A stretch of DNA of 64,000 nucleotides from Callorhinchus milii. Taxonomy: Eukaryota. Numbering within the stretch: the first letter of the stretch is position 1; every line of letters begins with the position of its first letter. The stretch is from assembly GCF_018977255.1 (NCBI RefSeq), contig NW_024704755.1, positions 10,788,001 to 10,852,000 on the forward strand. The letters run 5' to 3'. Of the stretch, positions 1 to 53,212 are shown piece by piece. The notes under the pieces were generated by a model, which ran no database searches, had not been told where the DNA came from, and saw only the letters and a list, made by a program, of their open reading frames with translations. The position numbers and the translations under genes are program-made.

Positions 1-3000
1 TGCCATGGGGTCAATATAGCAAATAAATTTCCCCACCAGTCAATTTTTTAAAAAAAATAGACATTTGTACATGCATGTTAAAGTGAAAATCATAATTAGT
101 GCTACTTAGCCACATTTTGCATATATTACCTAAGGTTAATTGTTACCTAAACTACATAATTTCCTAATTCTAAATTGTGGTACTTATACTGAACAAAGCC
201 ATCATATTTCACAGAAATACACTATTACATGTCAAAATAATTCTTAGTTGTCTTTTCGACTAAAGAGTACCTGACAGAAAGATATGTAAAATCTCAAGAA
301 ACTGATTTTTTTTAAGCTTGACACAACTGTATCAGTATTCACAAACTCAAAACAATTATCATGAATGCAAGCTGTTTAATAGTAAGCAGTGTGTCTACTC
401 TACACCTCATACAATGATTTCTTTACATGTAATTAATAGCTACAGAACTGAGCTCTGTACGACGCCATAGCAATAGTTTTTTTTAAAGCATTGGTGAAGC
501 TTTTAGATTTTAGCTTTTAAATTCTCATTTTTAAATTCAGAATATTACGGCACATATGTTACTTAATTCGCTTTCATTGTAAATGTTCTCCCTCCTAAGG
601 GACTCACACATGCTGGGGTATCTTTGCATGAGTGCCTCCAGCACCTCATCCAAATGATTATTCTTAATGAACGAGCCAAGACAATGAATGTTGGGTTGCC
701 TATTTGTCTGTGGAGAGCATCATACCTAGGCCTGATCCTGTCATTACCTCAGTTCAGCACATGCTCACTTTAATATAGAGGTCAATGGATAATGATCAGC
801 AGTATAAATGTTGGTTGGTTCTCCTCTTCCCTAACTCAAAGGTGCTAAGTCAATTGCAGTGCCTCAACCTCGATCAACCAACTAGGCATAGCCTAGAAAT
901 TGAACTTACAACATTTCAATTCTGCATTGACTGTGTACTAAAGCTTCGCATTACAGGAAACTACAACAGAATTACTGGGAAGTTGCATGTTGTGACAAGA
1001 TTGGTGTCATGAGGAAATGTACACACTGTATTCCATAGGGCAAGAAACATCCTGTCACTTCAATCAGTATTACAGATCGGTTCTTTAAGGATGATATCAA
1101 TTCTATTTGTTTCACTACAAACCTTTCATTGAGTAATATTCATCAATCACCATGCGTTGGACCATGTTAGTAACACTTAACAGATTTGTTCGAAAGTTCT
1201 GTCATGGTGACATTTCGACATGCAAGGCAAGATTGCAGTATAAGCGTATTCCACTGCATTTAGCTTGTATAAAGTGTAAATTAGATTAAATGGATTTTCT
1301 TCATGATAGAAATAATATATATTGGACTTGGTTCTCAGTATTACAAAGGTAGATGTAAAGAAATGATCTGTTGAAAACTCTTGGGTGATTCTTTGAAAGA
1401 AGAGAAAAAATAGGGCAACTCAGGGAGGAACAAAAATTCAAGAAATGTTATTGTTTGTTGAAGTACATATAACAAATTTAACATGAGAATTTTATCAATT
1501 CATTAAATCAGCACATTGTACAGGGGATATGCTAAATATTTTGCACTATTTATTTTTTAATGTGTTACTGCAAAGAATATGGAAAATTTGGAAAAAATTA
1601 TGTTGTCATTCTAAGAAAATGCTAAAGGGGATCTGATTTTTAACCTGTAAAACAAAACAGCATATTTGGAACACAGTTGTAAAATGTTCACAATTAAAAA
1701 TAATGTATGTCTTGCTTTTAAATCTGTAAATGTAGGACATTGGTATCCAAAAAGTGATGGGTCCCAATAGGATTCACCAGCAGTATCCTTTGATTCATAA
1801 TTAGTGAGATTTGTTGTGAAATCAAAACTTTTAAGACCTTATTACTTACAATAGGATGCAAATTAATAAACACATTTTAAAAGTTTCAAATCACGAAGCT
1901 TTCGTTGAGCGTGTAGTCTTTTGGTATTATGATCACAAAATAATACATAATTTCCCCTCCCCCAAACATACAGGTAAGATAATTTTTATAAATAGCTGCT
2001 GAAATTGTGGAAAAGTGTGATTTTTATCTTGTCAAATGTGATGCCTGTACAGTTAAAAGTATCCAGTATTATTTGCCACATGTTCTGACCGCGTTCTCTA
2101 CCACAGCAGTTAAGTTACAGTGCGCCAGCTGTTCAAACAGATAGGATTTATCTGCTTTATTTTGATAGTTTCATATTTCTGACATGAATGAAACACCAGT
2201 ATATGAGGAGGATGCAAAGCCCTTTATACTACAGTAATGTGGCAAGACCACCTGTGGGGAATAAAGAAGTGATTGCGCTATGAAAGTTATCGTGTTAGTT
2301 TACGTAAATAGTTTAGAATGTTTCAACCCCACTTTTTGGATAATAATGCACAATGTTATCATACAGGTTCACTCGTGGTCAGCATTTAACCTGACAAACA
2401 GGGTAGTGACTATGGTTTTCAAAACAAACATTATTTATTTAAATGTGTTGTGAAACAAGTAGTCCCTTCTTTCCTCAGTTTATACAAGAGATTTCCTCCA
2501 GATAGCTCGGACAGTGGATTTAAAATAAATTATAACAAAAATCCATCAGTGCAGTTTTAACAGGAACAAACACAGGAAGAAGTATCAGAGTAAATGCATC
2601 TCTCCCCATTTCATCTGTTGCAGATCAAAAAGATCCATTATGCAGTTTACCACACATTTGCATATCCTGTTTAATCCTTCCTGTTTGGCACGCGTGGAAT
2701 GATTGATAAAAATATGGTACAAAAACCAACACTCCATCTTAACTGACAACACTATCAAACCACATTCAAAATTGAACACGAATGCTTACTATACATACAA
2801 TAATGCCAATTTGCATGGCATCAAATGACTTTCTGGAGCACTTATCTCACCCTTTCAATTCAGTTTACATCATTATATTGTTTATCAGCATGTTTTTGTC
2901 ATCCAGACTTTGTGGAATATTTTGTTTCTTTGTTCCATTTCCAATTGTCAACAATTCGTAAATATGTATCCATAACAAAAGTCTAACTATTTAATGTGTT

Positions 3001-3276
3001 CAAACACACTGTGCAAAGGTAAAACAATTAAGGATGTTTAAAAGTGAATAGATACTAAAGAAGTAAATGTTTGGGGGAGAAAATGGGATTAGCCTGCTCC
3101 TGTTTAATCATACATTGTGGAACACCATACTATTTCTAGCAAATGAGATAGGTTGTTCTGTAATAAATAAAACCAGTTCTTGAATGACAACGAGAAAGAA
3201 GTTTGAATGAGACGGGAATCAATACATTTTGACAATTAAAACCAACAATCTTGAGACCTACACATGTACAAGCATT

Positions 3277-3589
3277 TAATAATAATAGTAATCCTTGCAT
3301 TTGATATAGCGCTTTTCACGACTTCTAGACATCTCAGAACGCTTCACAGAATATACTGTAAAGTGAAGTGACTGTATATTTGTGGGCAAAACGCAGCAGC
3401 CAATTGCACACATCAGTGTCCCACAAAGAGTAGTGGATTGAAGTGACCAATTTATTATTTTTTTTCTTGAAGGATTATTATCAGGCGTGTGGAGTAAGAA
3501 AACTTGCCCAAGGTTTCCCCCTGCCGGGAATTGAACCCAGGTCTCTCACTTGCAAGGTGAGTGCTCCAACCACTGAGCTAAAGGACTCC
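3277..3589 (-). mobile_element. tRNA-derived SINE with head and L2-type tail
   Basis: The minus strand begins ggagtcctttagctcagtggttggagcactcaccttgcaagtgagagacctgggttcaattccc, with A and B boxes and a TGC-anticodon-like loop. It ends gcgctatatcaaatgcaaggatt(att)n. The body recurs many times in the window. Confidence 0.88.
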
Positions 3590-4602
3590 ACATTTATGAG
3601 TTAAAGTCCTTGAATATTATATTTCTGAGTTTCACCATCAGTGGGTGTTCCAAACTTTATGTGGCTTGTAAGTTCATGACGGTGATTTAAGCAATTATTT
3701 GTTTGGCATGTGATCATTAAGAATGTTAACCTTACATAGTCTTCTTTAGAAATCAGGTCAAAAACTACATTAGACTTTCCAGCATGCTGAAGAGCTTTTC
3801 TTATTTTTGCCAATAATATAGTTTGAGTTTCTTGGACTACTCCCTTTCACCTCCCAAACCAAGACTTAAAACATAATGAGGAGTGATTAATTGGTGTTTA
3901 AATCAAAGGAAAGAAACTCCAGTCAGATCAAGAGGGAAAAAAATGCAGAAAAAATGTAATACATTTTCAGGTTACTGCCACCATCCACTCATACAAGATT
4001 GCAGGAAACCGAATGTTGAAGATATAAAAACATTTGGCAAAATATTAAAAACTGAAACCACATTAAAAACAGAACGTATTTAAAGCCACTTTATGGGATG
4101 AGGAAAGTATATTCTGTTTACATAAAAGAGAACACTAGCAAGACCTAAACCACAGTGGTTAAATAAAGAAGTCAGGATGAATATCAAAAATGAGCAAAAG
4201 TGGCAGTCATGATGGTGTAGTAGATGCAGCTGCAGGACGAGGAGCGTGCTGGACACAGCAGGGACTGAATGGGTGGTTAAATTGGCCCCAGCCTTCCAAA
4301 GGTTTAGGGAGGGTAAAATCAGCCAGGTTTCCTAATCCTGGACTGATCTCCGCTCAGTCCTCTCTCTTGTGGTAGTGTACACGTGTGGCACAGATGAGAA
4401 CTATGATGCCCTCTATAGTCGGGTGGCCTCATTGCCAAGGCTCGTGCATTAACCTGAGGGTAAAAATGGAAAAGCAGCCCAGCATCATGAGGTTGGAGAT
4501 AAGGAGCAAGTGCATATGTCAATGGAGGGGAAAATGTAAACAATGAGGAGAAGCTATATGTAAAAAAAAGTAATGAGGATTGGGATTTGAGGCAGTTGAG
4601 GT

Positions 4603-4870
4603 TTACTAAACAAGGTGTAAAAAAATATAAGTGGACAACAGGTAATGGCAGGTTAATATACATAAAAGTTAAAATAAAATTAGGGGAGAATTAGGAAGAG
4701 AGAATAAAGTAGTTTTAAAAAAACACAGAAAGGTATTACAAATTGTTTTTAATATTGTTGGCTTAATATTGCAGAAATACAGCTCCCCTGATGTTTGAAT
4801 AACTTTGCTCCCATTCAGCCCCTGCTATTAGTACGTTCCAATTTTGCAATCAATGAGCTGAACCTTTAAG
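4603..4870 (+). repeat. Left arm of a 268 bp inverted repeat (partner 6131-6398)
   Basis: Its reverse complement matches 6131-6398 with about 4 substitutions by manual comparison. Confidence 0.93.
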
Positions 4871-6130
4871 AACCAGTCTGCTCAGGGAGAGGCAAGTTTC
4901 TGTCGACCTGGCAACGGACCACAGGTCAAGCCCAGAATGTAAAGATTCTAAAAATATTAAAATTGAAGCAAACTGGGTGAGGCAGTAAATTTACAACACT
5001 GTTTTTTTTACCTCTAGAATATCGGTTTGAATCTGGCTATGACGAATAGGCTGACAGTCTCCTCTCTTGGCTTTTAACGCTCTTGAAGAAAATGAGTTTC
5101 GTCACTCCCAGTGGAATTTGTAGTAGACAGTGCCATTGCTCAAAATAGACCACATTTCAGCATAAATTGTGCTAAATCACTCAACGAAGACATAAAGTTA
5201 CTTATGTGACAAATAATAGCCCTTATATTTGACATAATGCCTTTTCACATCCAGAGGATGTCTCAAGTGCTTCACAGGATATACTGGAAAATAGACGGAA
5301 CTGTGGGTGAATAAAACAATTCATACTGGTGCATGAGGCGTGCAGTACGGATGCTCTTGAAGTCGGGTTTTAAACACCCATTTGGGGTCAGTAATAATTG
5401 AGTTTCTCTACATCTGATTTATGTTCTCCATGTCCTGGAGGCTGCCTGATTTTTTTTTGATGGGGGGACGTAGATGTCAGCTGGGTGTCTGATACGTGTG
5501 CAAATCTATCAGCATGCTTAAGAGTATCCAAAACCAAGCTGCGATTCCCATGCAGCCCACCAACACATGGAAATCCCAGAGATAGATTGTTGGAATGGAA
5601 TGCACACTCTCTCCCTAGAGGGATGCATCCTGATTACCTAATTCTGGAAAGTATTAGGCGCAGGTTGGCAAGAGCCAAAGCTTGGGAAACCCCAAGTGTG
5701 CGTTGGGGTACTGCTGGAGTCTAACCAGCTAAAGCCGCATAGCTTGCCATTGATATCACTGTCTGGCAAGCTTTCCCACTGCTTGTCCAGCTAAGGCCAT
5801 CCTACCCGTTAGGGCTTTGGCTTGCAGGGTTAACATGAGCTCAGTGGGATGCCCCCAGTGCCTGATGTGAACCATAAAAAGATTTTAAGGAGCATTCATT
5901 GCAACTTTTAAGTGTTTTAGGTGGGGCCAGCAACCCCTATGCCCACATTGCGTTGCTTATTAAAACTCATGACTCAGTTCAATGTTTGACAATTTTCAGT
6001 TAGAAATTTGATAAGTTTGGAAGCTCCATGCAAAATTACTGAGGTTGTTTTTACAGTAATTACTGTGATGTGCTTCGTGACATTTCAACATGATATAGGT
6101 GCTATAAAAAGCTGGATTCTCCATTAGACC

Positions 6131-6398
6131 CTTAAAGGTTCAGCTCATTGATTGCAAAACTGGAACGTACTAATAGCAGGGGCTGAATGGGAGCAAAGTT
6201 ATTCAAACATCAGGGGAGCTGTATTTCTGCAATATTAAGCCAACAATATTAAAAATAATTTGTAATACCTTTCTGTGTTTTTTTAAAACTACTTTATTCT
6301 CTCTTCCTAATTCTCCCCTAATTTTATTTTAACTTTTATGTATATTAACCTGCCATTCCCTGTTGTCCACTTATATTTCTTTACACCTTGTTTAGTAA
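6131..6398 (-). repeat. Right arm of a 268 bp inverted repeat (partner 4603-4870)
   Basis: cttaaaggttcagctcattg...acaccttgtttagtaa is the reverse complement of ttactaaacaaggtgt...caatgagctgaacctttaag. Confidence 0.93.
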
Positions 6399-7184
6399 TT
6401 ATTTAAATTCAAAGCTTTGTTTTTATTTCTATTTGCAAAAAACTTTTGTACGTATTTGTGTATTTACTTAGACAATATGATCTGTCTTTGGATTAAACTT
6501 GCAATTAAAGATCTTAGCAGGAATCATTCTGCCTGTGGTAATATTATCACACATTTAACACTTTTAATGGAATGTTTACTTTGGCAGAACCCCAACTTTT
6601 GCAAGCTTACCACAAATCAGCATTTTACACATTGAATTAAATACAACTGTAATGGATTAGTGCATAATGACCAAACCACCACTTATACAGTCGATTAATG
6701 GATGAACCAGATAAATTGGATGGCTTTTTTCTATTAATTACTTACAATGTTAGGCATATTCAAAAGTGGGGTTTAAAATATGCAGAATTAATAGGTCTCC
6801 ATTAATAAATATGGTAAAGGATTTTTAAATCAAGAGGATTTGGGTGCAACTATTAAAGCATCTGATCAATGTAGCATTGTAAATGAGATAAATCAAGTCC
6901 TTTACCTGTGCTTCCCTGACTGCCACTTCTTTTCTCTTCCTTTCTGTTCCTTATTCTCCTATTTTGTTTCTGAATTTTCCAGCAGTTCTTAAAAATAGTT
7001 TTACCCATTTCTATCTTTGGAGCTGATATTATTTAATTAAACAGGTCAATAAATTGATATAAAGTTATTGTGCACTACAGTAAATCAAAAATAGTTGGAG
7101 CAGTTTAGCACCCAGTGGAATTGTTGGATTTTTTTTTTTCAAAAATCTCATTTTATAAATTGTGAAAGATAGAATCACAACTAC

Positions 7185-7722
7185 CAAACAGTCTTTGAAC
7201 ATGTTGGCACCAACAACCCCAATAAACAAGCTAGTCATTGGAAGTCTAGAGCAGCTCTGCCTTGATGAAAGTGGCTGGTAGAGGATCAGTCTCATTAACA
7301 GATTGACAATCGAGCCAATCTGCTCAATTAACTGTGTCCAGCCAACTTGCATAATGTAGTACAAGGATATCAGCAGACTGTGCAGCTGGTGTAAACTTGT
7401 CTGCACATCATCAAGTACAATTTCCATTCACTGAGCTCTAAGGGCTTTCCCTATCTTGTCCAGGTAGGAATTGAAGGGGCCAATTCCTGATTCTTCCAAA
7501 CTGATGAAGGATATTATTCTGCATTCAGTGTATAATGAAGAATAATCTCATCTTTTTAATAAATTAATTCTGTGTAAGTTCTGTAACTCAGTTAATGCCC
7601 TCCTTGCATTTGGTTTTCCTCAATTATTGGACACCCAATGCCAGTGAAATTCAACCTTCATCTTTCATAATCATAACTTCTTCCAAACATTTGAGGCATG
7701 GAGAGGAATGTAGATGAGTCAC
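7185..7722 (-). pseudogene. Decayed exon-like block, candidate exon 5
   Basis: Acceptor tttatacAG|GT, phase-compatible with the 7976 donor. Reads GDSSTFLSMPQMFGRSYDYER* followed by coding-like segments broken by stops and frameshifts. The 3' boundary is uncertain. Confidence 0.35.
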
Positions 7723-7975
7723 CTGTATAAATGCAAATGCATGATTTATGAACACATCATTGAACTTTACAACAGAACTTTGCTTTTTTTAAGACTGCGG
7801 TTAAATGTGAATTAATTTCTGGAATGTAGATAGAAATGGAAGATGAATATTGCAATTTTTTTAAAATAAAAATTGCTGTGCAATGATTTACTGCTATTTT
7901 ATGTTGGTCTGAATTACGTGCGCCTGATGTTTTTATAGCAAATGGTATAACTCATTCTATTAAAAAAAAGCTTAC

Positions 7976-8270
7976 CAGAATCTGCAGATTTGACTGCTGT
8001 GGTATCTTCCCTGCTCAATGGAAAGTAGGCCTGCTTTATTCTCAGTGCAGTCTGTTGTTTTCAGGAGTACCACTATAAGCCAACTTCAATTTGGAAATCA
8101 CGGTGCTTTCTCCAGTCCCTTGCATCCCTATCGGGCATGCCAGGCATTTCAATGGCCGTGTTGACAGGCTTCTAAGGTGCATAACTTCATCTGTTTCTTT
8201 CAAGGAATTACGAAAAACCACTTATCTCAAGCATGGATTGCATGTTACAATAGTTTTGCATACCATTTTC
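7976..8270 (-). pseudogene. Decayed exon, candidate exon 4 of the Sowah-like gene
   Basis: Acceptor ttgtAG|GAA and donor CTG|GTAAG, 295 nt (phase 0 to 1). The frame continuing from exon 3 reads ENGMQNYCNMQSMLEISGFS* with five in-frame stops, the first being TAA at 8210-8208, and ends PLSREDTTAVKSADS. Confidence 0.5.
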
Positions 8271-8432
8271 CTACAACCACTGCCAACATAAATCAAACCA
8301 CTCTTGTTAACAACAGCGGCAACAACTTGCATTTGTGTAGTACCCTTTATGTACTACACATAGCACATCCGAGCACTTCACAGTGGGGGGGTTGGATTCT
8401 GAGCAGGGAAAGAGAAGTGGGAGGTGACCATA

Positions 8433-8965
8433 CAACAACAACAACAAGATTCCATTTATTGAGCGCCTTTCACGTCGGGAGGACGTCCCAAGGCGCTGTA
8501 CAGTTAGGTCAGGACCCGAGCAGGGGGGAAATGGTGAGGGGAGGGAAGGGAGGGAGCGAGGAGGGGGTAGAGATTTGAGAGAGGAGCTGAAGGCACGGTC
8601 AAAGAGAAAGGTCTTGAGACCGGCGTTGAAGGAGGAAAGGGAGGAAGCGGCGAAGGCACTGGGGGATAGAGTTCCAGAGCCTCGGGGCTGAGAGGCTGAA
8701 GGCCCGGCCACCGATGGTAGGGCGGTTGGGCGGGGGATGTGGAGCAGACCGGAGCCAGAGAAACGGAGGGTACGGGCAGGTAGGTAGGGGAATAGTAGGT
8801 TGGAGAGGTAGGAGGGAGCAAGGCCGTGAATGGCCTTGTAGGTGAGGATGAGGATCTTGAAATCGATCCTCTGGGGGATGGGGAGCCAGTGGAGGCGAGC
8901 GAGGGTGGGAGTGATGTGGTCCCGAAGCCTGGTCCGGGACAGTACACGAGCTGCAGAGTTCTGAA
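8433..8965 (-). mobile_element. 5'-truncated LINE2 (L2 clade) with ORF2 C-terminus, 3' UTR and (TTG)n tail
   Basis: Translates as IQNSAARVLSRTRLRDHITPTLARLHWLPIPQRIDFKILILTYKAIHGLAPSYL...GGRAFSLSAPRLWNSIP...LKTFLF, typical of the L2 ORF2 end. It is GC-rich, frameshifted and flanked by TGACCATA on both sides. Confidence 0.92.
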
Positions 8966-8973
8966 TGACCATA

Positions 8974-9150
8974 GGTAAAGAGAAAGGTTTTAACTGGGAT
9001 TTGAAGATGGATTAAAGAAGTGGCGAGGTTGAGCGATTGACACAAGGAATTCCACAAATTACGGGTGTAATGTCTGAAGGCTCAGCCATCGATGGTGATA
9101 TGGGGGGTGTGAAACGTGCAGCAGGCCTGTGTTAGTTGAGCTAAGGTGGG
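8974..9150 (-). mobile_element. Older L2 fragment (host of the nested L2; continues at about 8315-8424)
   Basis: Degenerate LWNSLCQSLNLATSL...KTFLFTYG, the same ORF2-end motif. Its 3' tail (aacaacttgcatt...) lies on the other side of the younger insert. Confidence 0.7.
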
Positions 9151-10419
9151 TGTTTTACTACTAAAACAGTCACCATGAACTGAAAGCCATTATCATGTTG
9201 AGGACAACTGATATTTTGCATTCTATAAAATATCAACTGGAAACTAAAATAAAAAGGACATGCATTATACGACTTTCAATTATACAGAAGCACAGCAAAT
9301 TTATGTAAACATGAAAGATGTTTTGGTTGTTAGAAATCTGGAACTCTAAAAATGGTTTTCTGACCTACTCATTTTGTGGGCCACATTTTAAAAGTTCTTT
9401 CAAATTGCCCTGTGCTGTGCATCATTTCCCAAAACAAAATATTTTACAATCTTTAATTAAAATTTGACAAGACTTTTAATTAGCCATTAATGAAAAATGC
9501 AAGACAGGAGTAATCACAAATTACAGTGAAAGAAAGATTTTGTTTATAACCATCTTTACCATTTCAAGTCGTAAAAATGCATGCATTGAAAATATAATCT
9601 GCCTCCAAGTATACCCTAGGAGCTGGAAGTCAATGGATCTGAACAGAAAGTTTCTCCAATAAATAAATGAATGAGTATATTTTGACTGAAATAGTTTTGT
9701 ACTGATTTTGCCAAATACAGTTGTGTGCTATTCAGTTAATGGATTTTCTGCCCAGGCTGTTGACACAACCAGCTGCTAGTAACTCCCAGCAGAAATAAGA
9801 CTGCTGAAAGCTGTTAAGGGTATCCTGAAGGGTACAGTGGTTATTGGAGGTTTAATTCATTCTGGGCCCAACATGATTTAAAAGTCTGAGCATCGCAATG
9901 TGAAATGTTTATATATTAGAAAGTAATTAGGTGGTACATTAGAATCTACTAAAGGAAAATTAATGTCTTCAGAGGAAAAAGTAAGCATTTTCATAACGCC
10001 CATCGATAGAATCTGAGTACCACTCTTAACATGGGTCTCTCAGTCTGGCAGAGCATACAGAATCTGTAATTGTATCATAATATGCAGTACATGAAAATAA
10101 TTACCTTCTTTTATTGTGCTGTACAAGAATACCATGTGTGCTGATATGATTGGGGGGGGGGGTTAGGAGAGAAGTCAGATAAGATATTATACAGTAAGTT
10201 TACTTGATTATCTTTTAAATAATAAAATCAAAAGCACAATTTTGAGAAATAACATGTAAATCATACATTCTAACAATATGCTATTGATATTTGAAAATAA
10301 AGGCTCACAAAACTGCATAGTGGGAGAAATAACATCTGAACAGTATGTTAACTAGTGTCTTGCATACAAATCACCAGAGATAACAGTGAATTTTACATCA
10401 GGTATTGTCTATCACATAC

Positions 10420-10674
10420 CTCATCTGCTTGTGTGATCACAACGAATGGTATGCAGCTACTTCTGTCATCTTTTTCATCTTCAAGCAGAGCTTCCTCTGT
10501 TCCTGCCCGAGTTGATGGATCCAAAACCCACCATTCCAGCAGGTTTGCTGGAGCTTCGTCAGGGAAGTCAGTGTCAACAGATCTCTTTGAATCATCTACA
10601 AAAGCTGACAATGTCTCTTCCTCAACTCCAAATGCACCATCGCTAGCTGGTTTAAGGACAACATACTTTGTTCT
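10420..10674 (-). CDS. Sowah-like gene, coding exon 3 (255 nt, phase 0 to 0)
   Basis: Long pyrimidine tract then aatAG|. Fully open frame RTKYVVLKPASDGAFGVEEETLSAF...IPFVVITQADE, donor GAG|GTATGT. KYVVLK is the motif closing the Sowah N-terminal domain and continues directly from exon 2. Confidence 0.75.
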
Positions 10675-40443: not shown

Positions 40444-40505
40444 CTCTTCTTCTGTGATAAAACCAACTTTTGAAAGGATATCTTGGAACTGTTTTCGGTT
40501 TCTAT
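40444..40505 (-). CDS. Sowah-like gene, coding exon 2 (62 nt, phase 1 to 0)
   Basis: Acceptor cttatttttAG and donor GAG|GTAAGG. Joined to exon 1 it reads DRNRKQFQDILSKVGFITEEE, matching the Sowah pattern r.nR..Fk..vn.va.v..ee. Confidence 0.78.
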
Positions 40506-42549: not shown

Positions 42550-44170
42550 CGTAAAGAACGAGAGAAGTCTGTCGATGCCGAATAATGAAAGTGGTGCTGA
42601 AGAGGGTCGGTCGGTCGGTCGGCTTCACGCTTGAAGCCAACATGTGGCCCCCCAAATCAGCTTCGTATCAAGGGTTACAAAACAAGGAGCAAGTTTCCGC
42701 TGGCGGCCCTGAAGCCCGAGCGAAACCAGCAGCAGTTTTCGCAGTTACTTTTGCGTCCAAACAAAATCACAGACAGACAGCTTCAATATAATCCGTCTCT
42801 CTCTCTCTCTCTCTCTCTGTGTCTTGTCTGTTCTTGTTTATATATACTGTATATACTGTGTGTGTGTGTGTATATATGTGTGTACCCACACACGCACAGG
42901 TATGTTTCACGCTGTTCTTTCTCATTGCGTCTGAAATAAAAATAAATAAAATGAAAATGCAAAAAAGCGGAGAGAACTCCCGTTGGCGCGCGGCTGCAAC
43001 CCTCCCGAATTCGGAATAAAGAGAGAGAGAGAGAGAGAGAGTAAAATGAACGATTGATTGATTGATTGATTAATTAATTCAGTGTCCGTTTGCCTTCCCT
43101 GGTCTCACAGCCTAACTTGTGGTTGCGGGCGCTGGTTTGGTGTGCTGATGTTGTTCTCGAAGAAGAAGAAGAAGAAGAAGAAAAGAAGGTAATAAAAATA
43201 AAAGGAACACAAAAAACGGGACGAGTTCGAAGCCTCCGGGTTAAGCCCAGGGATTATGATTTTTTTTAAGAAAAAATAAACCAACAAACAAACAAACCCC
43301 TAAACGACGCGACGACAGCGGCAGTCACCCACTTCACTGACTGACTTACCCCTGGCGTCTGGCGCGGCCTGGAACAGAACCGTCTCAAACATGTTGACCA
43401 GCTCTGCATATTTTATCTTGCCCCCTCTGTCGTGGAGCAGAGCGAGAATAAAATCCACCTTCAGCTCCTGCGATGCCGCCGAGGTCATCCTCCTCCTCCT
43501 TTCCTTTCCTTTGCCGCGTCTCCTCCTACTCCTCTACCCGCCGCCGCCTCCCCTCCACCACCACCACCACCAGCTCACGCCGCACTTCCGGTCGCCAGCC
43601 CCGTTACCCTGACAACGACGCAGCCCGCGGCAGCTCGCTCCGTCACCGCGTTACCATATGCAAATGAGGCAGCCGGACCCCTCGCCAATCCACGGTGACA
43701 AAGAGGGAGAGGGGAAGGGGTGGGGGGGAAATGGTGGGCGGCGCGCTGCACCTCGGGACGTGGAGTTCTTCGCTTGCGTTGAACACCCCCCCCCGACCAC
43801 CGCCAGGTTCGAGGGCGGGAGGGGAGCAGAGACTACATCTCCCAGGGTGCCCGGCGCCACCGCCCTCCTGCCGCCGTCCATTACGCCCAGGCTGTCCAGG
43901 CAACGGCGTGTATGGCCGGTGATCGGCGGTGTGCGCTCGGGGCAGTTGCAGCACCTTCTCGGAGGACGCGCCGCAGCAGCGGCTTCCAGCTCAGCCTGCG
44001 AGAGGGAGAGAAAGAAAAAGTTTATATCAGAAAATACTTCAAGGCATTTGCGTTCATCTGCCTAACATCAAGCGCGAGGGAGAGGGCGGCGGCGGCGGTG
44101 GTGGGGTGGGGGGGTGTTAATACTTAAGGTGGTATCGATATGGGTCGATTGGTGAGGTAAACCTTTACCG
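42550..44170. promoter_or_regulatory. CpG island / promoter of the Sowah-like gene
   Basis: Sharp rise in GC and CpG against an AT-rich background. Contains an ETS-like CCGGAAGT (minus strand, 43584-43591), an RFX X-box-like GTTACCCTGACAAC (43603-43616), an octamer ATGCAAAT (43658-43665) and a CCAAT at about 43685. Confidence 0.75.
43350..43488 (-). CDS. Sowah (sosondowah ankyrin repeat family)-like gene, coding exon 1
   Basis: MTSAASQELKVDFILALLHDRGGKIKYAELVNMFETVLFQAAPDAR resembles the Sowah N-terminal motif (E..il.fl..rGGkv.n.eL...F...l). Good Kozak context aggATGa, inside a CpG island, with a strong donor AGG G|GTAAGT (phase 1). Confidence 0.8.
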
Positions 44171-44375
44171 CTAAAACCGATAAATGCTGTGAAAAGCATC
44201 TAAACTGCGTGTGTGTGTGTGTGTGTGTGGGGGGAACTCGAGGGTATTATGATTTTTTTAAAAAAAAACAACCGCTCTTTTCGTTTCTCTTGTGTTTTGT
44301 GGCGATTTAAGGTTTGGGATCCGTCAGTCATTCAAAAGGCATTTTTGTCCTATAAAACACCATAAGTAGTGTCTC

Positions 44376-45412
44376 TTTGGCCTGTGTGTGTGTGGGGGGG
44401 GGGGGGGTGCAGTGTGGGGGGGTGTTGGGGGGGTGCAGTGTGGGGTGTGTGTTGGGGGGTGCAGGGTGGGGTGTGTGTTGGGGGGTGCAGTGTGGGGTGT
44501 GTGTTGGGGGGTGCAGTGTTTGGGGGGTGCAGTGTGGGGGGGGTGTTGGGGGGTGCAGTGTTTGGGGGGTGCAGTGTGGGGGGTGTGTTGGGGGGGTGCA
44601 GTGTGGGGTGTGTGTTGGGGGGGTGCAGTGTGGGGTGTGTGTTGGGGGGGTGCAGTGTGGGGGGTGCAGTGTGGGGTGGTGTGGGGGGTGCAGTGTGGGG
44701 TGTGTGTTGGGGGGTGCAGTGTGGGGGTGGTGGGGGGTGCAGTGTGGGGTGTGTGTTGGGGGGTGCAGGGTGGGGTGTGTTGGGGGGTGCAGGGTGGGGT
44801 GTGTTGGGGGGGTGCAGTGTGGGGGTGTGTTGGGGGGGTGCAGTGTGGGGTGTGTTGGGGGGTGCAGTGTGGGGGGTGTGTTGGGGGGGTGCAGTGTGGG
44901 GGGTGTGTTGGGGGTGTGTGTGGGGGTGTGTTGGGGGTGCAGTGTGGGGGGTGTGTTGGGGGGGTGCAGTGTGGGGGTGTGTTGGGGGGGTGCAGTGTGG
45001 GGGTGTGGGGGTGTGTGTTGGGGGGGTGCAGTGTGGGGTGTGTGTTGGGGGGTGCAGTGTGGGGTGTGTTGGGGGGTGCAGTGTGGGGGTGTGTTGGGGG
45101 GTGCAGTGTGGGGGTGTGTTGGGGTGCAGTGTGGGGGTGTGTTGGGGGGGTGCAGTGTGGGGGTGTGTTGGGGGGGTGCAGTGTGGGGGGTGTGTTGGGG
45201 GGGTGCAGTGTGGGGTGTGTGTTGGGGGGGTGCAGTGTGGGGTGTGTGTTGGGGGGGTGCAGTGTGGGGTGTGTGTTGGGGGGGGTGTAGTGTGGGGGGG
45301 TGCAGTGTGGGGTGTGTGTGTTTGGGGGTGTGCAGTGTGGGGGTGGGTACAGTGGGGTGTGTGTAGTGTGTGGGGGGTGCAGTGTGGGGTGTAGTGGGTG
45401 GTTTGTGTGTGT
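44376..45412. repeat. G/T-rich minisatellite, unit about 24-28 bp (GGGGGGTGCAGTGTGGGGTGTGTGTT)
   Basis: Roughly 35-40 imperfect tandem copies with a nearly invariant TGCAGTGT core and variable G-run lengths. Confidence 0.95.
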
Positions 45413-50256: not shown

Positions 50257-50436
50257 CCCCAGCAGCTGACAGCACAGACCCAGGCGATCTGCCGCTGCTC
50301 TCTATGACTACCGATCACACCATTCGCATAAAAAGCTTCGGAAATATAGGCTGTTGATATTTTTTTTTTCTTTTTTTTTATATTATATATTATAGACACC
50401 TAAAGAGAAAGAGAGAGAGGAGAGAAATCTTAAGCC
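49890..50436 (+). promoter_or_regulatory. Irx5 proximal promoter / 5' UTR with two (GA)n tracts
   Basis: Lies directly upstream of the ATG with raised GC and CpG content. (GA)n runs at about 49978-50028 and 50224-50251. The TSS cannot be fixed from sequence. Confidence 0.55.
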
Positions 50437-50673
50437 ATGTCGTATCCTCAGGGCTACTTATATCAACCTTCAGCTTCTTTGGCTCTTTATTCGTGTCCAG
50501 CCTACACTACGAGCGTCATATCGGGACCCAGGACGGATGAACTTGGGAGATCTTCCTCGGGCTCTGCTTTCAGCCCTTACGCCGGATCTACAGCCTTCAC
50601 AGCCGCCTCCCCGGGTTACAACAGCCACCTCCAGTACGGTACAGACCCGACCGCTGCCTTCACTTCCTACGTG
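50437..50673 (+). CDS. irx5: Iroquois homeobox 5, coding exon 1 (79 codons, phase-0 donor)
   Basis: Translates as [55 protein letters not shown]...SYV, near-identical to the vertebrate IRX5 N-terminus as I recall it. The start context is gccATGt and the exon ends at a canonical GTG|GTAAGT donor. Confidence 0.96.
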
Positions 50674-51272
50674 GTAAGTTCTGCTTTTCTTTCAAGACGC
50701 ACCATTTACAATGTATTCGTAACTCTTCCTATGACACGTTGGTGCCTTTTTCCACCCCCACCCCCCCCCATCCCCATCCCCCCCCCCCCCACCCCGCACC
50801 CCACACAACCACCGCACCCACCCCATCCCCAGTGATCTTTCACCAGATCGTCTCCCTCTCTCTCTCTCTCTATCTCTCTTTTTTCCCCCCCAAAAAAACT
50901 TTTTTGTTGTTAGTTCTGGTGTTTTATTTCAATACGATTTGTTGTTTCGCGTTGAGATCAACTTTTGGTCACATTGCGCGCGTGTGTGTATGTGTGTGTG
51001 TGTGTGTTTTAAGAAAAAATATATAATCATTGGGTTGGGGGTTTGGAGGGGGTGGTGGGGGGGTGGGGGGGTGGTGGTGTGGTGGAGAGAAACCCTGACT
51101 GAGAGCATCGCATTCGGTTATTCCTCGTGTTTTCTAAGTGCTCATTCCACTGACTCGTAGGCAACATTTTTTACAGCTGAACGGCGTTATCTTTGCCGAC
51201 CAGTGAGTGGTTGTGTGTGTGTGTGTGTGTGTTTTTTTTTTGACGGGTGTGTGTGTGTGTGTTGTGTCTCAG

Positions 51273-51678
51273 GGCTCTCCCTACGATCACTCCACGGGAA
51301 TGGCCGGATCTATCGGATACCACCCCTACACAGCTCCTTTGGGCTCTTACCCCTATGGCGATCCAGCCTACCGAAAAAATGCCACCAGAGACGCGACTGC
51401 CACTCTCAAAGCCTGGCTCAACGAGCACAGGAAGAACCCCTACCCCACCAAAGGCGAGAAGATCATGTTGGCCATCATCACCAAAATGACCCTGACTCAA
51501 GTGTCCACCTGGTTCGCCAACGCCAGGAGGAGGTTGAAGAAGGAGAACAAGATGACCTGGACCCCGAGGAACAGGAGCGAAGACGAGGAGGAAGAGGAGA
51601 ACATCGACCTGGAGAAGAACGACGACGACGAGCCGCACAAATCGTTGGAGAAGGGCCACTCGTCGGAAGCCGAGTCAG
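51273..51678 (+). CDS. irx5: Irx5 coding exon 2: TALE-class homeodomain plus acidic region
   Basis: Acceptor tctcAG|GGC. Translates as GSPYDH...[85 protein letters not shown]. Donor TCAG|GTGAG, phase 1 (406 nt). Confidence 0.97.
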
Positions 51679-52301
51679 GTGAGAGGGAGACCCGATGAAT
51701 ATTTTATTTTTTTATTCAAGAGTCGTTTCCGATAAAAAAGGACGCGGATCTGATCACTGGTTTCTTGCGACGGCTTTATTATTTGTAGTGCACCCTATGT
51801 GCCGGATAATACTCAGCGATTTTCGTTTCGGACTCTTAATTCTTGTCGCGCCAACACGTGTCTGAACACCTAAAATAGGTTTGTAGGGGGTGTGGAGGGG
51901 GGTGTGGGGGTGGGGGGGGGGGGGGGGAGGGGGGGTGGGGTGTGGGGTGGGAGGGGTGAGGGTGAGGGTGTGGAGGGGGTATATTCCTGTTTAAAAAAAA
52001 ATCCATCGCGCTTTTTTCAGTTGGGGTTGGAGTCAAAAGTGCTCGAATTTCTGCCGAATGAAGACATCTAAAACTAACCCGTAATTTCCGAGTTGAATTT
52101 TCAACGGATAGTGGCGTGAAACTAAATGGTTGTCTTTTATTGTTATTTCTCCCACCCCTCCTCCCCCCCCACCCCTCCTCCCCCCACACACACACCCCAC
52201 CCCCCCCTCTCCCCCCCCCCCCCCCCCACTCTCCCCTTCCCCCGCACACCCCCTACCAACGGATTTTGGGTGTGGGGGGCGAAAAAAAAACCCAACCCCA
52301 G

Positions 52302-53212
52302 GAGATCAGAAGAGCCACCTGGTCGAAACTCCTTGCGAAAGATTCGAAGATGAAGACGATCCGAGTGGCAAAGAGAGTGAAAACATCACGAGCGATTCGG
52401 AGTTAAAACACCCCGAAGAAAGGGAGACCTCACGCTCGCCCAAAGCCACCACTTCTGCTTCTTCTTCTTCTTCTTCTTCTGCTTCCAGTTCTACTTCGAC
52501 TTCTTCTTCATCTTCTTCTACTTCGTCCTCCACCACCACCTCCTCCACCGTCTCCTCCACCATCTCCTCCTCCTCCTCCTCCTCCTCGCTGCTGCTGCTG
52601 GTGCCTCACGGAGCTGAGCTCTCGCAGGAGAGCCACGACCCCCGAGTGGAAAACGCACATACAAAGCCGAGTCGCTCCCTGACTCACGGCACCGGCTCCG
52701 GCCACGCGACCTCGGTCATCCATTCCACCCCGACGGCGGCAACGGGGCCAACGGGGCCAACGGGGACGGTCGCCTCCAAGCCCAAGCTCTGGTCACTGGC
52801 CGAGATCGCCACCTCGGACAAGTCGAAAGAACAGAACGAGCCCCCGCAGGGTGTGTGCCCGGGCCAGGGCTGCGCCGCGCCGGCCAGCGCCTCGTCCCCG
52901 TCCCGCTCCCCCTGCCCGTACCCGAGCAGCGCCGTGTTGGCTCGGCCTCTCTACTACACCTCGCCCTTCTACACCGGCTACACGAACTATGGCAGCTTCG
53001 GGCACCTCCACGGCCACAGCCACAGCCACAGCCACAGCCACGGCGGTGCCCCCACGCATTTCCCTTCCAATGGATTAAGTCAGACTGTCTTAAACCGAGT
53101 AGAGACTCTGGTCAAACTCAGTCCCGAGATTAAAACAAAGAGCCCGACACAAATAGATCATTGCAAGGACACGTCGCCTTTTGATTTGAAGAAAGGTATG
53201 TCGACTATTTAA
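52302..53212 (+). CDS. irx5: Irx5 coding exon 3: IRO box and C-terminus
   Basis: Acceptor ccccAG|GA joins in frame to the phase-1 donor, giving GDQK. Contains the IRO box KPKLWSLAEIATSD and the motif RPLYYTSPFY, and ends DLKKGMSTI-stop, resembling the IRX5 C-terminus. Total CDS is 1554 nt (517 aa). The exact acceptor position is less certain than the rest. Confidence 0.9.

Follow-up and report, generated by a model that had tools for sequence, protein, structure and literature searches.

The Sowah locus

The window, a stretch of 64,000 nucleotides from Callorhinchus milii, carries on its minus strand the beginning of the Irx-linked, intron-containing Sowah gene (RefSeq LOC103176098). Within it lie the coding part of exon 1 from the ATG (43350..43488; 139 nt), identical to the LOC103176098 RefSeq proteins, exon 2 (40444..40505; 62 nt) and exon 3 (10420..10674; 255 nt, phase 0-0), whose frame is open, as a preliminary description of this DNA had claimed. 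Positions 1..10419 are the in-window part of intron 3, which measures 27,426 nt overall. Head-to-head with Sowah, on the plus strand at 50434..53212, ORFs and sequence indicate an Iroquois homeobox gene, which we take to be Irx5 from its N-terminal sequence.

Eight further Sowah exons (4-11) lie 17-129 kb left of the window, also on the minus strand: exon 4 (C14 10770993-10770871), exon 5 (C14 10746082-10746020), exon 6 (C14 10730767-10730645), exon 7 (C14 10716029-10716018), exon 8 (C14 10696937-10696851), exon 9 (C14 10689605-10689533), exon 10 (C14 10664409-10664314) and exon 11 (C14 10659048-10658858). We placed the RefSeq proteins (409-410 aa) on the genome exon by exon; the 11 exons, across 173 kb, form an open 407-aa frame with 0 internal stops and GT-AG at 10/10 introns, and 407/407 residues are identical to the RefSeq proteins. 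The ankyrin repeats (Ank_2, E 1.7e-14, residues 232-322) are encoded by exons 6-10. An N-terminal SOWAH winged-helix domain (PF25877) is precomputed on four RefSeq proteins, with an Atlas lead of 0.83, and is absent from a separate Pfam scan. Four intronless Sowah copies are found elsewhere in the genome.

The Sowah gene at this locus is whole, not a partial pseudogene. The preliminary description had read five exon-like blocks beyond exon 3 as decayed Sowah 3' exons, leaving a partial pseudogene or an N-terminal-only protein; the true 3' exons, including those for the ankyrin repeats, are intact left of the window. Its alternative, in which exon 3 bypasses the blocks and is spliced to live exons further left, agrees with both annotation and genome, which show exon 3 joined to exon 4 as judged from predicted models, splice sites and conservation. 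In comparison with the shark orthologue, exon 6 is best conserved (38/41 residues identical, against 19/41 for exon 4 and 14/21 for exon 5), and this orthologue carries the same 19 residues past the end of exon 3, which therefore leaves no room for the blocks.

The blocks of intron 3 and their contigs

Block 1 (8270-7976) is indeed flanked by AG and GT and has five stops when read in phase 0, and exons 1-3 continued into it would encode 172 aa, all as originally described; its length, 295 nt, is 3n+1 and hence does not preserve the frame. Checked against another dataset, the stops are real: four of the five are unchanged in a contig of run X5 spanning 6328-8295, while the third (8174-8172) is polymorphic, run X1 carrying both alleles. 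We also considered assembly errors as the source of the stops and rejected them, the X5 contig differing at three places only.

Six RNA-type runs were available as contigs; their RNA label is guessed, none of the datasets listed being recorded as RNA. Exon 3 appears as a piece with ends 10674/10420 in 4/4 RNA-type runs. In X1, exon 3 is joined to block 1 at 8190, not 8270, and 7976 is joined to 7722. Its contigs show a loose end at 8192 that equals the end of exon 3, the joint at the 7976 donor, and a joint 7720/7974 with CT..AC ends; the X5 contig runs across the same place without a joint. The spliced joint is explicit in one of the six RNA-type runs (X1) and suggestive in X3, from the same study, where a contig covers exactly 7974-8192; it was not seen in X2 or X4. 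Runs X10 and X12 have no contigs on 6120-8295 and are evidence for neither side.

These contigs delimit two dead-end exons on the minus strand. Exon A (7976..8190) is 215 nt long, or 221 nt with the acceptor at 8196, which is probably also used in RNA, and has a stop at 8151-8149, 173 nt ahead of its donor. A GT-AG intron of 253 nt (7723..7975) is then removed, as the X1 joint shows. Exon B (6702..7722) starts at the block 2 acceptor, continues unspliced past the supposed 7185 donor and block 3 (6906..7022), and extends to at least 6702, with AATAAA at 6427, 6328 and 6298. Thus the earlier proposal that exon 3 can splice into block 1 and then block 2 stands, whereas its acceptor at 8270 and its frame do not. 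No use of the 8270 acceptor was seen: the sole contig covering 8270, and with it the extra 5' part originally assigned to block 1 (8191..8270, minus strand), passes unspliced. Neither dead-end exon occurs in the annotated isoforms (four clusters), so while the gene itself is already annotated, the dead-end isoform is new relative to the annotated proteins examined. In other fishes, no longer Sowah isoform with the block exons was found by word-based homologue searches, a weak instrument here (exon 3 as query, 150-2000 aa; 6 matches among 119 candidates).

Only unspliced contigs cross the supposed donor at 7185 and blocks 3-5. Block 3 lies inside exon B and is not a separate exon in these data. 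Blocks 4 (5012..5138) and 5 (3736..3864), both on the minus strand, are single-copy intron sequence with weak splice-like ends; a contig of X2 (4868-5585) runs unspliced across block 4, and block 5 is crossed in the same way by contigs of X1 (3551-4021) and X2 (3624-3935). The block 4 acceptor had been placed off by one, as its AG ends at 5139. Block 5 does end in FDLISKEDY before GTAAGG, as described, although its likeness to the motif preceding the Sowah ankyrin repeats is a matter of chance, because an intron interrupts that motif, between KK and DF, in the live gene. Among some 5,000 tiles scored, this block comes 932nd at best.

Per frame, the blocks hold on average about as many stops as intron 2 pieces cut to equal length; for the five blocks, an equally open or more open frame would arise by chance with a probability of 0.18-0.61. 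On a rough splice matrix, about four AG...GT pairs per 4.6 kb of intron 2 outscore most blocks. The 7976 donor scores 5.9 on this matrix, like live donors. The RNA-used acceptors score poorly on it, so low scores alone do not exclude blocks 3-5. We regard blocks 3-5 as likely chance splice-like signals; chance does not suffice for blocks 1-2, whose junction was observed in spliced form.

Sequence relatives of the blocks

Under two Sowah family profiles, the five blocks in the 27.4-kb intron 3 show no Sowah homology. The live exons come out on top with both profiles (exons 9-11 weakly in the orthologue-only one), and the best tile of the blocks' region ranks 63 or lower, at 0.5 bits. In tblastn, 26 proteins gave nothing below E 0.33 against intron 3, and Pfam on the block frames gave nothing near cut-off. 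Block 5 in frame 1 aligns to exon 10 with a raw score of 42, reached by 1/228 controls (134/228 at the DNA level), and a 19-nt match of block 1 to exon 10 was equalled by 0/100 and then 4/328 controls. We also tried, and rejected, the idea of a decayed middle region still kept by the intronless Sowah copies: the best z was 4.8 among 288 non-control comparisons, and the profiles disagree. The exception, block 5 in frame 1 (z 7.7 in the intronless-copy comparisons), was not upheld by the profiles.

Block 2 has other relatives. Comparison with the rest of the genome shows that it holds a degraded member of a coding family scattered through the genome: the segment 7257..7493, on the minus strand and thus co-oriented with Sowah, has 26 other genome matches at E<=10 (5 at E<=0.01), with 58-74% DNA identity to the family loci. 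In a member on C4, an open exon encodes Myb/SANT (PF13873, 25.5 bits against a cut-off of 21.7) and is followed, after a 269 nt intron, by the exon carrying the shared segment. The arrangement in the window is similar, with an intron of 253 nt and an acceptor-to-segment distance of 307 nt (344 nt in C4). The acceptor region in the window is 65% identical over 103 nt to another copy, L101 (E 8.6e-5; z 10, whereas two control segments reached 2.5 and 3.8 with their best hits), and aligns with the C4 acceptor, the four loci in this alignment having been chosen from 25 for similarity. Exon B of the C4 member finds a copy on C5 (E 2.6e-5), and the window copy is not among its 8 matches. Of 25 family loci, one has a clear Myb exon in the 1.5 kb upstream and a second has one weakly.

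The Myb/SANT similarity of block 1 is not significant (profile -5.8 bits; frameshift-aware score 32, reached by 7/90 controls), and two of its three frames and its DNA found only themselves in the genome. A DNA profile of the family recovered 7481-7184 and not block 1, and was swamped by flanking SINEs. Loose pairwise DNA alignments of the family were uninformative. The block 2 frame had 0 hits among 1.84 billion representatives, and no exact match turned up for two stop-to-stop frames, an uninformative result. For transposases, a Pfam scan of all six frames of 1-10419 gave no family at E<=0.05, and DDE_Tnp_4 gave 0/16 matches on C14, where an old copy might be too decayed to detect. Nor was there a convincing pair of terminal inverted repeats bracketing blocks 1-2 in 3300-10400; the family copies are only about 60-70% alike, so repeat ends may have been erased. 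We infer a Harbinger origin for the block 2 remnant; its link to the C4 gene is indirect.

Just upstream of block 1, a high-copy repeat (8300..9011, minus strand) has similar stretches at other loci, and contig depth is very high at 8219-9121. We take it to be a LINE 3' end followed by a SINE-like tail. Rfam on 1-44000 found only one tRNA-like SINE head.

Interpretation and known counterparts

The blocks lie within intron 3 of an intact Sowah gene, and we consider it probable that they form two unlike sets, with blocks 1-2 being dead-end exons likely derived from a decayed Myb/SANT remnant and blocks 3-5 likely chance signals. The remnant, likely of Harbinger type and co-oriented with Sowah, would have kept its own short intron, and its splice sites may now trap part of the Sowah transcripts, with weak cryptic acceptors providing the junction to exon 3. 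The product would be 165-167 aa long (165 aa with the 8190 acceptor) and comprise the winged-helix part only. Transcripts are subject to nonsense-mediated decay (NMD) when a stop lies more than 50-55 nt ahead of the last junction. Here the distance to the last junction seen is 173 nt, beyond this limit, and removal by NMD is predicted. The short NMD-type product proposed earlier thus survives as a prediction, with a different acceptor and frame. The polymorphism at 8174, seen in two studies, makes codon 6 of the RNA-used frame a stop, which suggests a neutral tail; the isoform is therefore probably tolerated leakage rather than a selected protein.

Could the blocks still be decayed Sowah 3' exons, left by partial pseudogenisation or by a duplicate of the ankyrin exons that has since died? 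The faint scores of block 5 (frame 1) and of the 19 nt of block 1 against exon 10 point that way, as do the annotated orthologues in shark, bowfin, gar and arowana, which stop at or soon after the first ankyrin exon. However, those scores fall in another frame and exon than the motif originally noted and fade with more controls, and block 2 belongs to an unrelated family. This reading is unsupported because the live 3' exons are intact, exon 6 is the best conserved and the blocks lack a Sowah profile match; intact exons 4-11 refute it for the gene as a whole, and the background ranks refute a dead duplicate. We find it scarcely credible.

It is also quite unlikely, in our judgement, that blocks 1-2 are plain cryptic exons, with block 2 simply overlapping an old repeat and block 1 and the 253-nt intron arising from random intron sequence. 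Block 1 is indeed single-copy, matched by neither protein nor DNA search, and its stop density is that of the intron, but a further copy of the family has the same acceptor region, which also aligns with that of the intact C4 gene, whose intron length and spacing are similar. A somewhat less doubtful, though still unlikely, possibility is that the exonised remnant was recruited as regulated poison or alternative last exons, shutting down Sowah output in some tissue while transcription from the Irx-divergent promoter is kept. The clean GT-AG joint seen in X1, its exon 3 junction (with the same ends in X3), the live-like 7976 donor, the stop well positioned for NMD, and the lack of exon A coverage in X2 and X4, though exon 3 is covered in all four runs, would fit such regulation. 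Against it, the evidence is a single study of contigs, whose depth gives no isoform shares; at least two weak acceptors compete, and the annotated isoforms lack these exons. Extending this idea, the transposon-derived splice trap might be a tissue switch diverting Irx5-divergent Sowah transcripts to RNA that is truncated or non-coding. It would then represent, in a living species, an early step on the path that in tetrapods took the locus from a protein-coding gene to a lncRNA (CRNDE, a descendant of Sowah), paralleled by 3' loss in sharks and holosteans; we think this improbable.

On our preferred reading of a trapped Myb/SANT remnant, exon-trapping of an ordinary intronic kind has taken place in a gene that is already annotated. 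Its importance is small at present, the gene being annotated and whole; it contributes an unannotated isoform and illustrates how the intron of an old gene remnant can come to serve a host transcript. Were the trap regulated and conserved, it would offer a testable model of how a bystander gene in an Iroquois block can lose its protein yet go on being transcribed.

Exonised transposon fragments and cryptic poison exons are a known phenomenon, and repeat-derived dead-end exons are common in long introns. As in those cases, host-oriented, repeat-derived intronic sequence is spliced in, with an early stop and predicted NMD. Here, in contrast, the donor is the remnant of a two-exon Myb/SANT-type gene, and the second junction appears to be the remnant's own intron rather than newly made sites. 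Harbinger elements carry Myb-like genes, with NAIF1 and MSANTD1-4 as domesticated derivatives (PMC9392472, excerpt). The intact C4 member likewise has an N-terminal Myb/SANT-like domain (PF13873) in a dispersed, mostly decayed family, whereas the window copy lacks any detectable sign of a Myb domain, a transposase or terminal repeats, its link being through the second exon only. Irx-linked, intron-containing Sowah genes belong to the genomic regulatory block formed by Iroquois and Sowah (Maeso et al. 2012, cited by PMC5803294, PMC12311624 and PMC3342872). The gene described here resembles them in its many exons, large introns and position beside an Iroquois gene, with intronless Sowah copies elsewhere, and differs in being intact, while the tetrapod parental gene is pseudogenised according to an excerpt of PMC5803294. 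Human CRNDE is a lncRNA opposite IRX5 (PMC7844700, excerpt). By position it can be likened to the present gene, with the same place and direction relative to an Irx5-type gene and several, alternatively spliced exons, but CRNDE is non-coding, whereas the Callorhinchus milii locus still encodes the full ankyrin protein.

Sowah around intron 3

Sowah (LOC103176098) occupies the minus strand of the window (G000:C14:10788001-10852000), with exon 1 at 43488-43350, exon 2 at 40505-40444 and exon 3 at 10674-10420. An Iroquois homeobox gene, which we take to be Irx5, lies head-to-head with it at 50434-53212. A 1-kb C/A-rich tandem array (44330-45400) separates the first exon from the Iroquois gene. 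Using exon 1 as a query returned four clusters that match it identically, named as SOWAHC-like isoforms of LOC103176098 of Callorhinchus milii. We mapped the annotated proteins to the window and 200 kb leftward; after exon 3 they resume 17 kb left of the window, reaching 129 kb left. The 11 exons total 1,224 nt (407 aa) with no internal stops and GT-AG ends at 10/10 introns, and 407/407 residues are identical to the RefSeq proteins (409 and 410 aa). The 2-3 additional residues of these isoforms, which the genome mapping left unplaced, probably reflect further tiny exons. The ankyrin repeats span residues 232-322, and a 12-nt micro-exon lies in this region (G000:C14:10716029-10716018). Judged from the genomic sequence, Sowah is intact, with a predicted joint between exons 3 and 4. 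The preliminary description had proposed a partial pseudogene, which we reject, since the 11-exon frame continues intact left of the window.

In alignments with shark, bowfin and gar orthologues, 98% of residues 1-260 are covered, and conservation is highest in exon 6 (38/41). Past the end of exon 3, the shark protein has the same 19 residues as Callorhinchus milii, and eight bony-fish proteins have 29-47, far short of the blocks discussed below, which amount to some 400 codons. Several annotated orthologues (P0010-P0013; shark 257 aa, bowfin 288, gar 273-315 with nine members, arowana 293) terminate at the first ankyrin exon or shortly past it; either these lineages have truly lost 3' exons or their annotation is incomplete. 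Three homologue searches recovered only one shark or ray protein.

Exon-like blocks and a dead-end isoform

Five exon-like blocks had been noted in intron 3 (8270-7976, 7722-7185, 7022-6906, 5139-5012 and 3864-3736). They lie where they were placed, although several boundary and length details needed correction. The five in-frame stops of block 1 had been taken as a sign of decay. Stop density in the blocks equals that of intron 2. The stops themselves are real: one X5 contig covers 6328-8295 and departs from the window sequence by two substitutions and an insertion. X5, of unrecorded kind, is probably DNA, judging from its genome-sized contig set. The substitution at 8174 in this contig abolishes the third reported stop and is heterozygous in run X1.

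Seven of 13 sequencing runs were examined: X5 and six taken as RNA by guess (none is recorded as RNA). X1-X4 come from one study, and contig depth cannot yield isoform shares. Exon 3 is present as an exon-bounded piece in X1-X4. In one X1 contig, 7974 is joined directly to 7720 (CT..AC ends), corresponding to the 7976 donor and 7722 acceptor; the contig then continues unspliced to 6702, reading through both block 3 and the 7185 donor. Also in X1, a 12-letter overhang at 8192 is identical to the end of exon 3, which places an acceptor at 8190. A second acceptor, at 8196, is suggested by two short contigs that leave six letters unaligned at 8198. An X3 contig spans exactly 7974-8192. Exon 3 had been suggested to splice into block 1 at 8270; a short dead-end isoform is indeed seen, but its acceptor is at 8190, and the sole contig across 8270 is unspliced. 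An X2 contig also crosses 7722 unspliced, and among the joints listed, unspliced contigs from X1 or X2 span blocks 4 and 5.

The predicted product of the isoform is 165 or 167 aa long, and its stop lies 173 nt ahead of the 7976 junction. Transcripts with a stop more than 50-55 nt before the last junction are subject to nonsense-mediated decay (NMD), and hence NMD is predicted here. The 8174 variant creates a stop at codon 6 of the isoform tail. Both the competing acceptors and this stop polymorphism are consistent with neutral leakage, and it seems rather improbable that the dead-end exons form a regulated switch. The preliminary observation is partly confirmed, and the isoform is genuine, yet ordinary. 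The literature covered, with most subscription papers outside its scope, yielded nothing on this isoform. The sections seen of a paper on CRNDE describe conserved intronic regions and leave Sowah unmentioned (PMC3509318), and PMC5577775 contains none of the terms looked for.

Ancestry of the blocks

A tBLASTn search of intron 3 with 26 proteins gave five matches (lowest E 0.33). We also scored two Sowah family profiles (9 and 14 proteins) on 11,592 tiles from both strands. Both ranked the live exons at the top; the best tile within 3700-8450 ranked 121/5,130 and 63/5,058 among scored tiles, and the block 5 tiles 2,299 and 932. On the tBLASTn result and profile ranks, the blocks are not Sowah exons. 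FDLISKEDY in block 5 had been likened to the motif preceding the ankyrin repeats, but the live motif is split by an intron, with KK followed by a 12-nt exon beginning DF. Frame 1 of block 5 aligns to exon 10 with a score of 42 (z 7.7, 40 shuffles; matched by 1/228 controls), and 19 nt of block 1 match exon 10 (equalled by 0/100 controls, then 4/328); neither likeness is upheld at the other level (DNA or protein) or by the profiles. A faint exon-4-like stretch with stops (L002, ~G000:C14:10785054-10784960, minus strand) lies inside intron 3, 2.9-3.0 kb left of the window; it scores 8.2 bits, expected by chance about once among 11,592 tiles.

Block 2 instead belongs to a dispersed family. Its 120-aa open frame has 26 other genomic matches at E<=10 and five at E<=0.01, most with stops. 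A copy on contig C5 with a 291-aa open frame matches 24 places at E<=0.01, including the window (9.1e-6) and a 244-aa frame on contig C4 (3.9e-4). A Myb_DNA-bind_5 search found 15 places, one of them 0.7 kb upstream of the C4 frame on the same strand (Pfam 25.5 bits). These sequence matches suggest an indirect link between block 2 and a Myb/SANT gene. The C4 member has two exons separated by a 269-nt intron; the spliced intron in the window is 253 nt. The window acceptor region is 65% identical to family copy L101 over 103 nt (z 10). Aligned with four chosen loci of 25, the window acceptor lines up with the C4 acceptor; the window donor coincides with a GT of copy L103 and is three columns off the C4 donor. 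The window copy is absent from the matches to the second C4 exon, block 1 has no Myb signal, a clear Myb exon lies within 1.5 kb of only 1/25 family loci, and no transposase or terminal repeats were seen near blocks 1-2. Long open frames are kept in L080 (C4:30904759-30903378; 163+244 aa), L049 (C5; 291) and L050 (C1; 396), possibly domesticated Myb/SANT-type genes; most other copies are broken.

High-copy repeats, very deep in the RNA-type contigs, occur at 3277-3580, 5190-5305, 5510-6110 and 8300-9011, one with a tRNA-like head (3580-3524). An inverted duplication of 268 nt (4603-4870 and 6131-6398; 99% complementary, 1,260 nt apart) could fold the pre-mRNA. It is not an assembly slip, as X1 and X5 contigs bear the other copy's flanks.

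An old element likely inserted in intron 3, co-oriented with Sowah, and then decayed. Its remnant would have retained the splice sites of its own short intron, and later repeats would have inserted at 8300-9011. Part of the transcripts would then pass from exon 3 to the weak block 1 acceptors, through the remnant's intron, and end somewhere beyond 6702, giving a product without ankyrin repeats that is predicted to be degraded.

Relation to known systems

Harbinger elements carry a Myb-like gene, according to PMC9392472, and a Harbinger label for the remnant is a lead from that paper.

Four intronless Sowah frames occur in the genome (L028, L029, L030 and L035, on C4, C13, C15 and C1; 707, 511, 629 and 446 aa), as expected of retrogenes. 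Another Sowah gene with introns is on the minus strand at G000:C18:7093000-7131500 (L054-L065); its exons include winged-helix and ankyrin ones, and it lies about 24 kb from a same-strand Iroquois-type homeobox 85% identical to the window homeodomain. The linkage of Iroquois and Sowah has been published, as have its tetrapod loss and replacement by a retrogene (Maeso et al., 2012, as related in the parts seen of PMC5803294, PMC12311624, PMC5010895 and PMC3342872), and both the intronless frames and the C18 copy fit this history.
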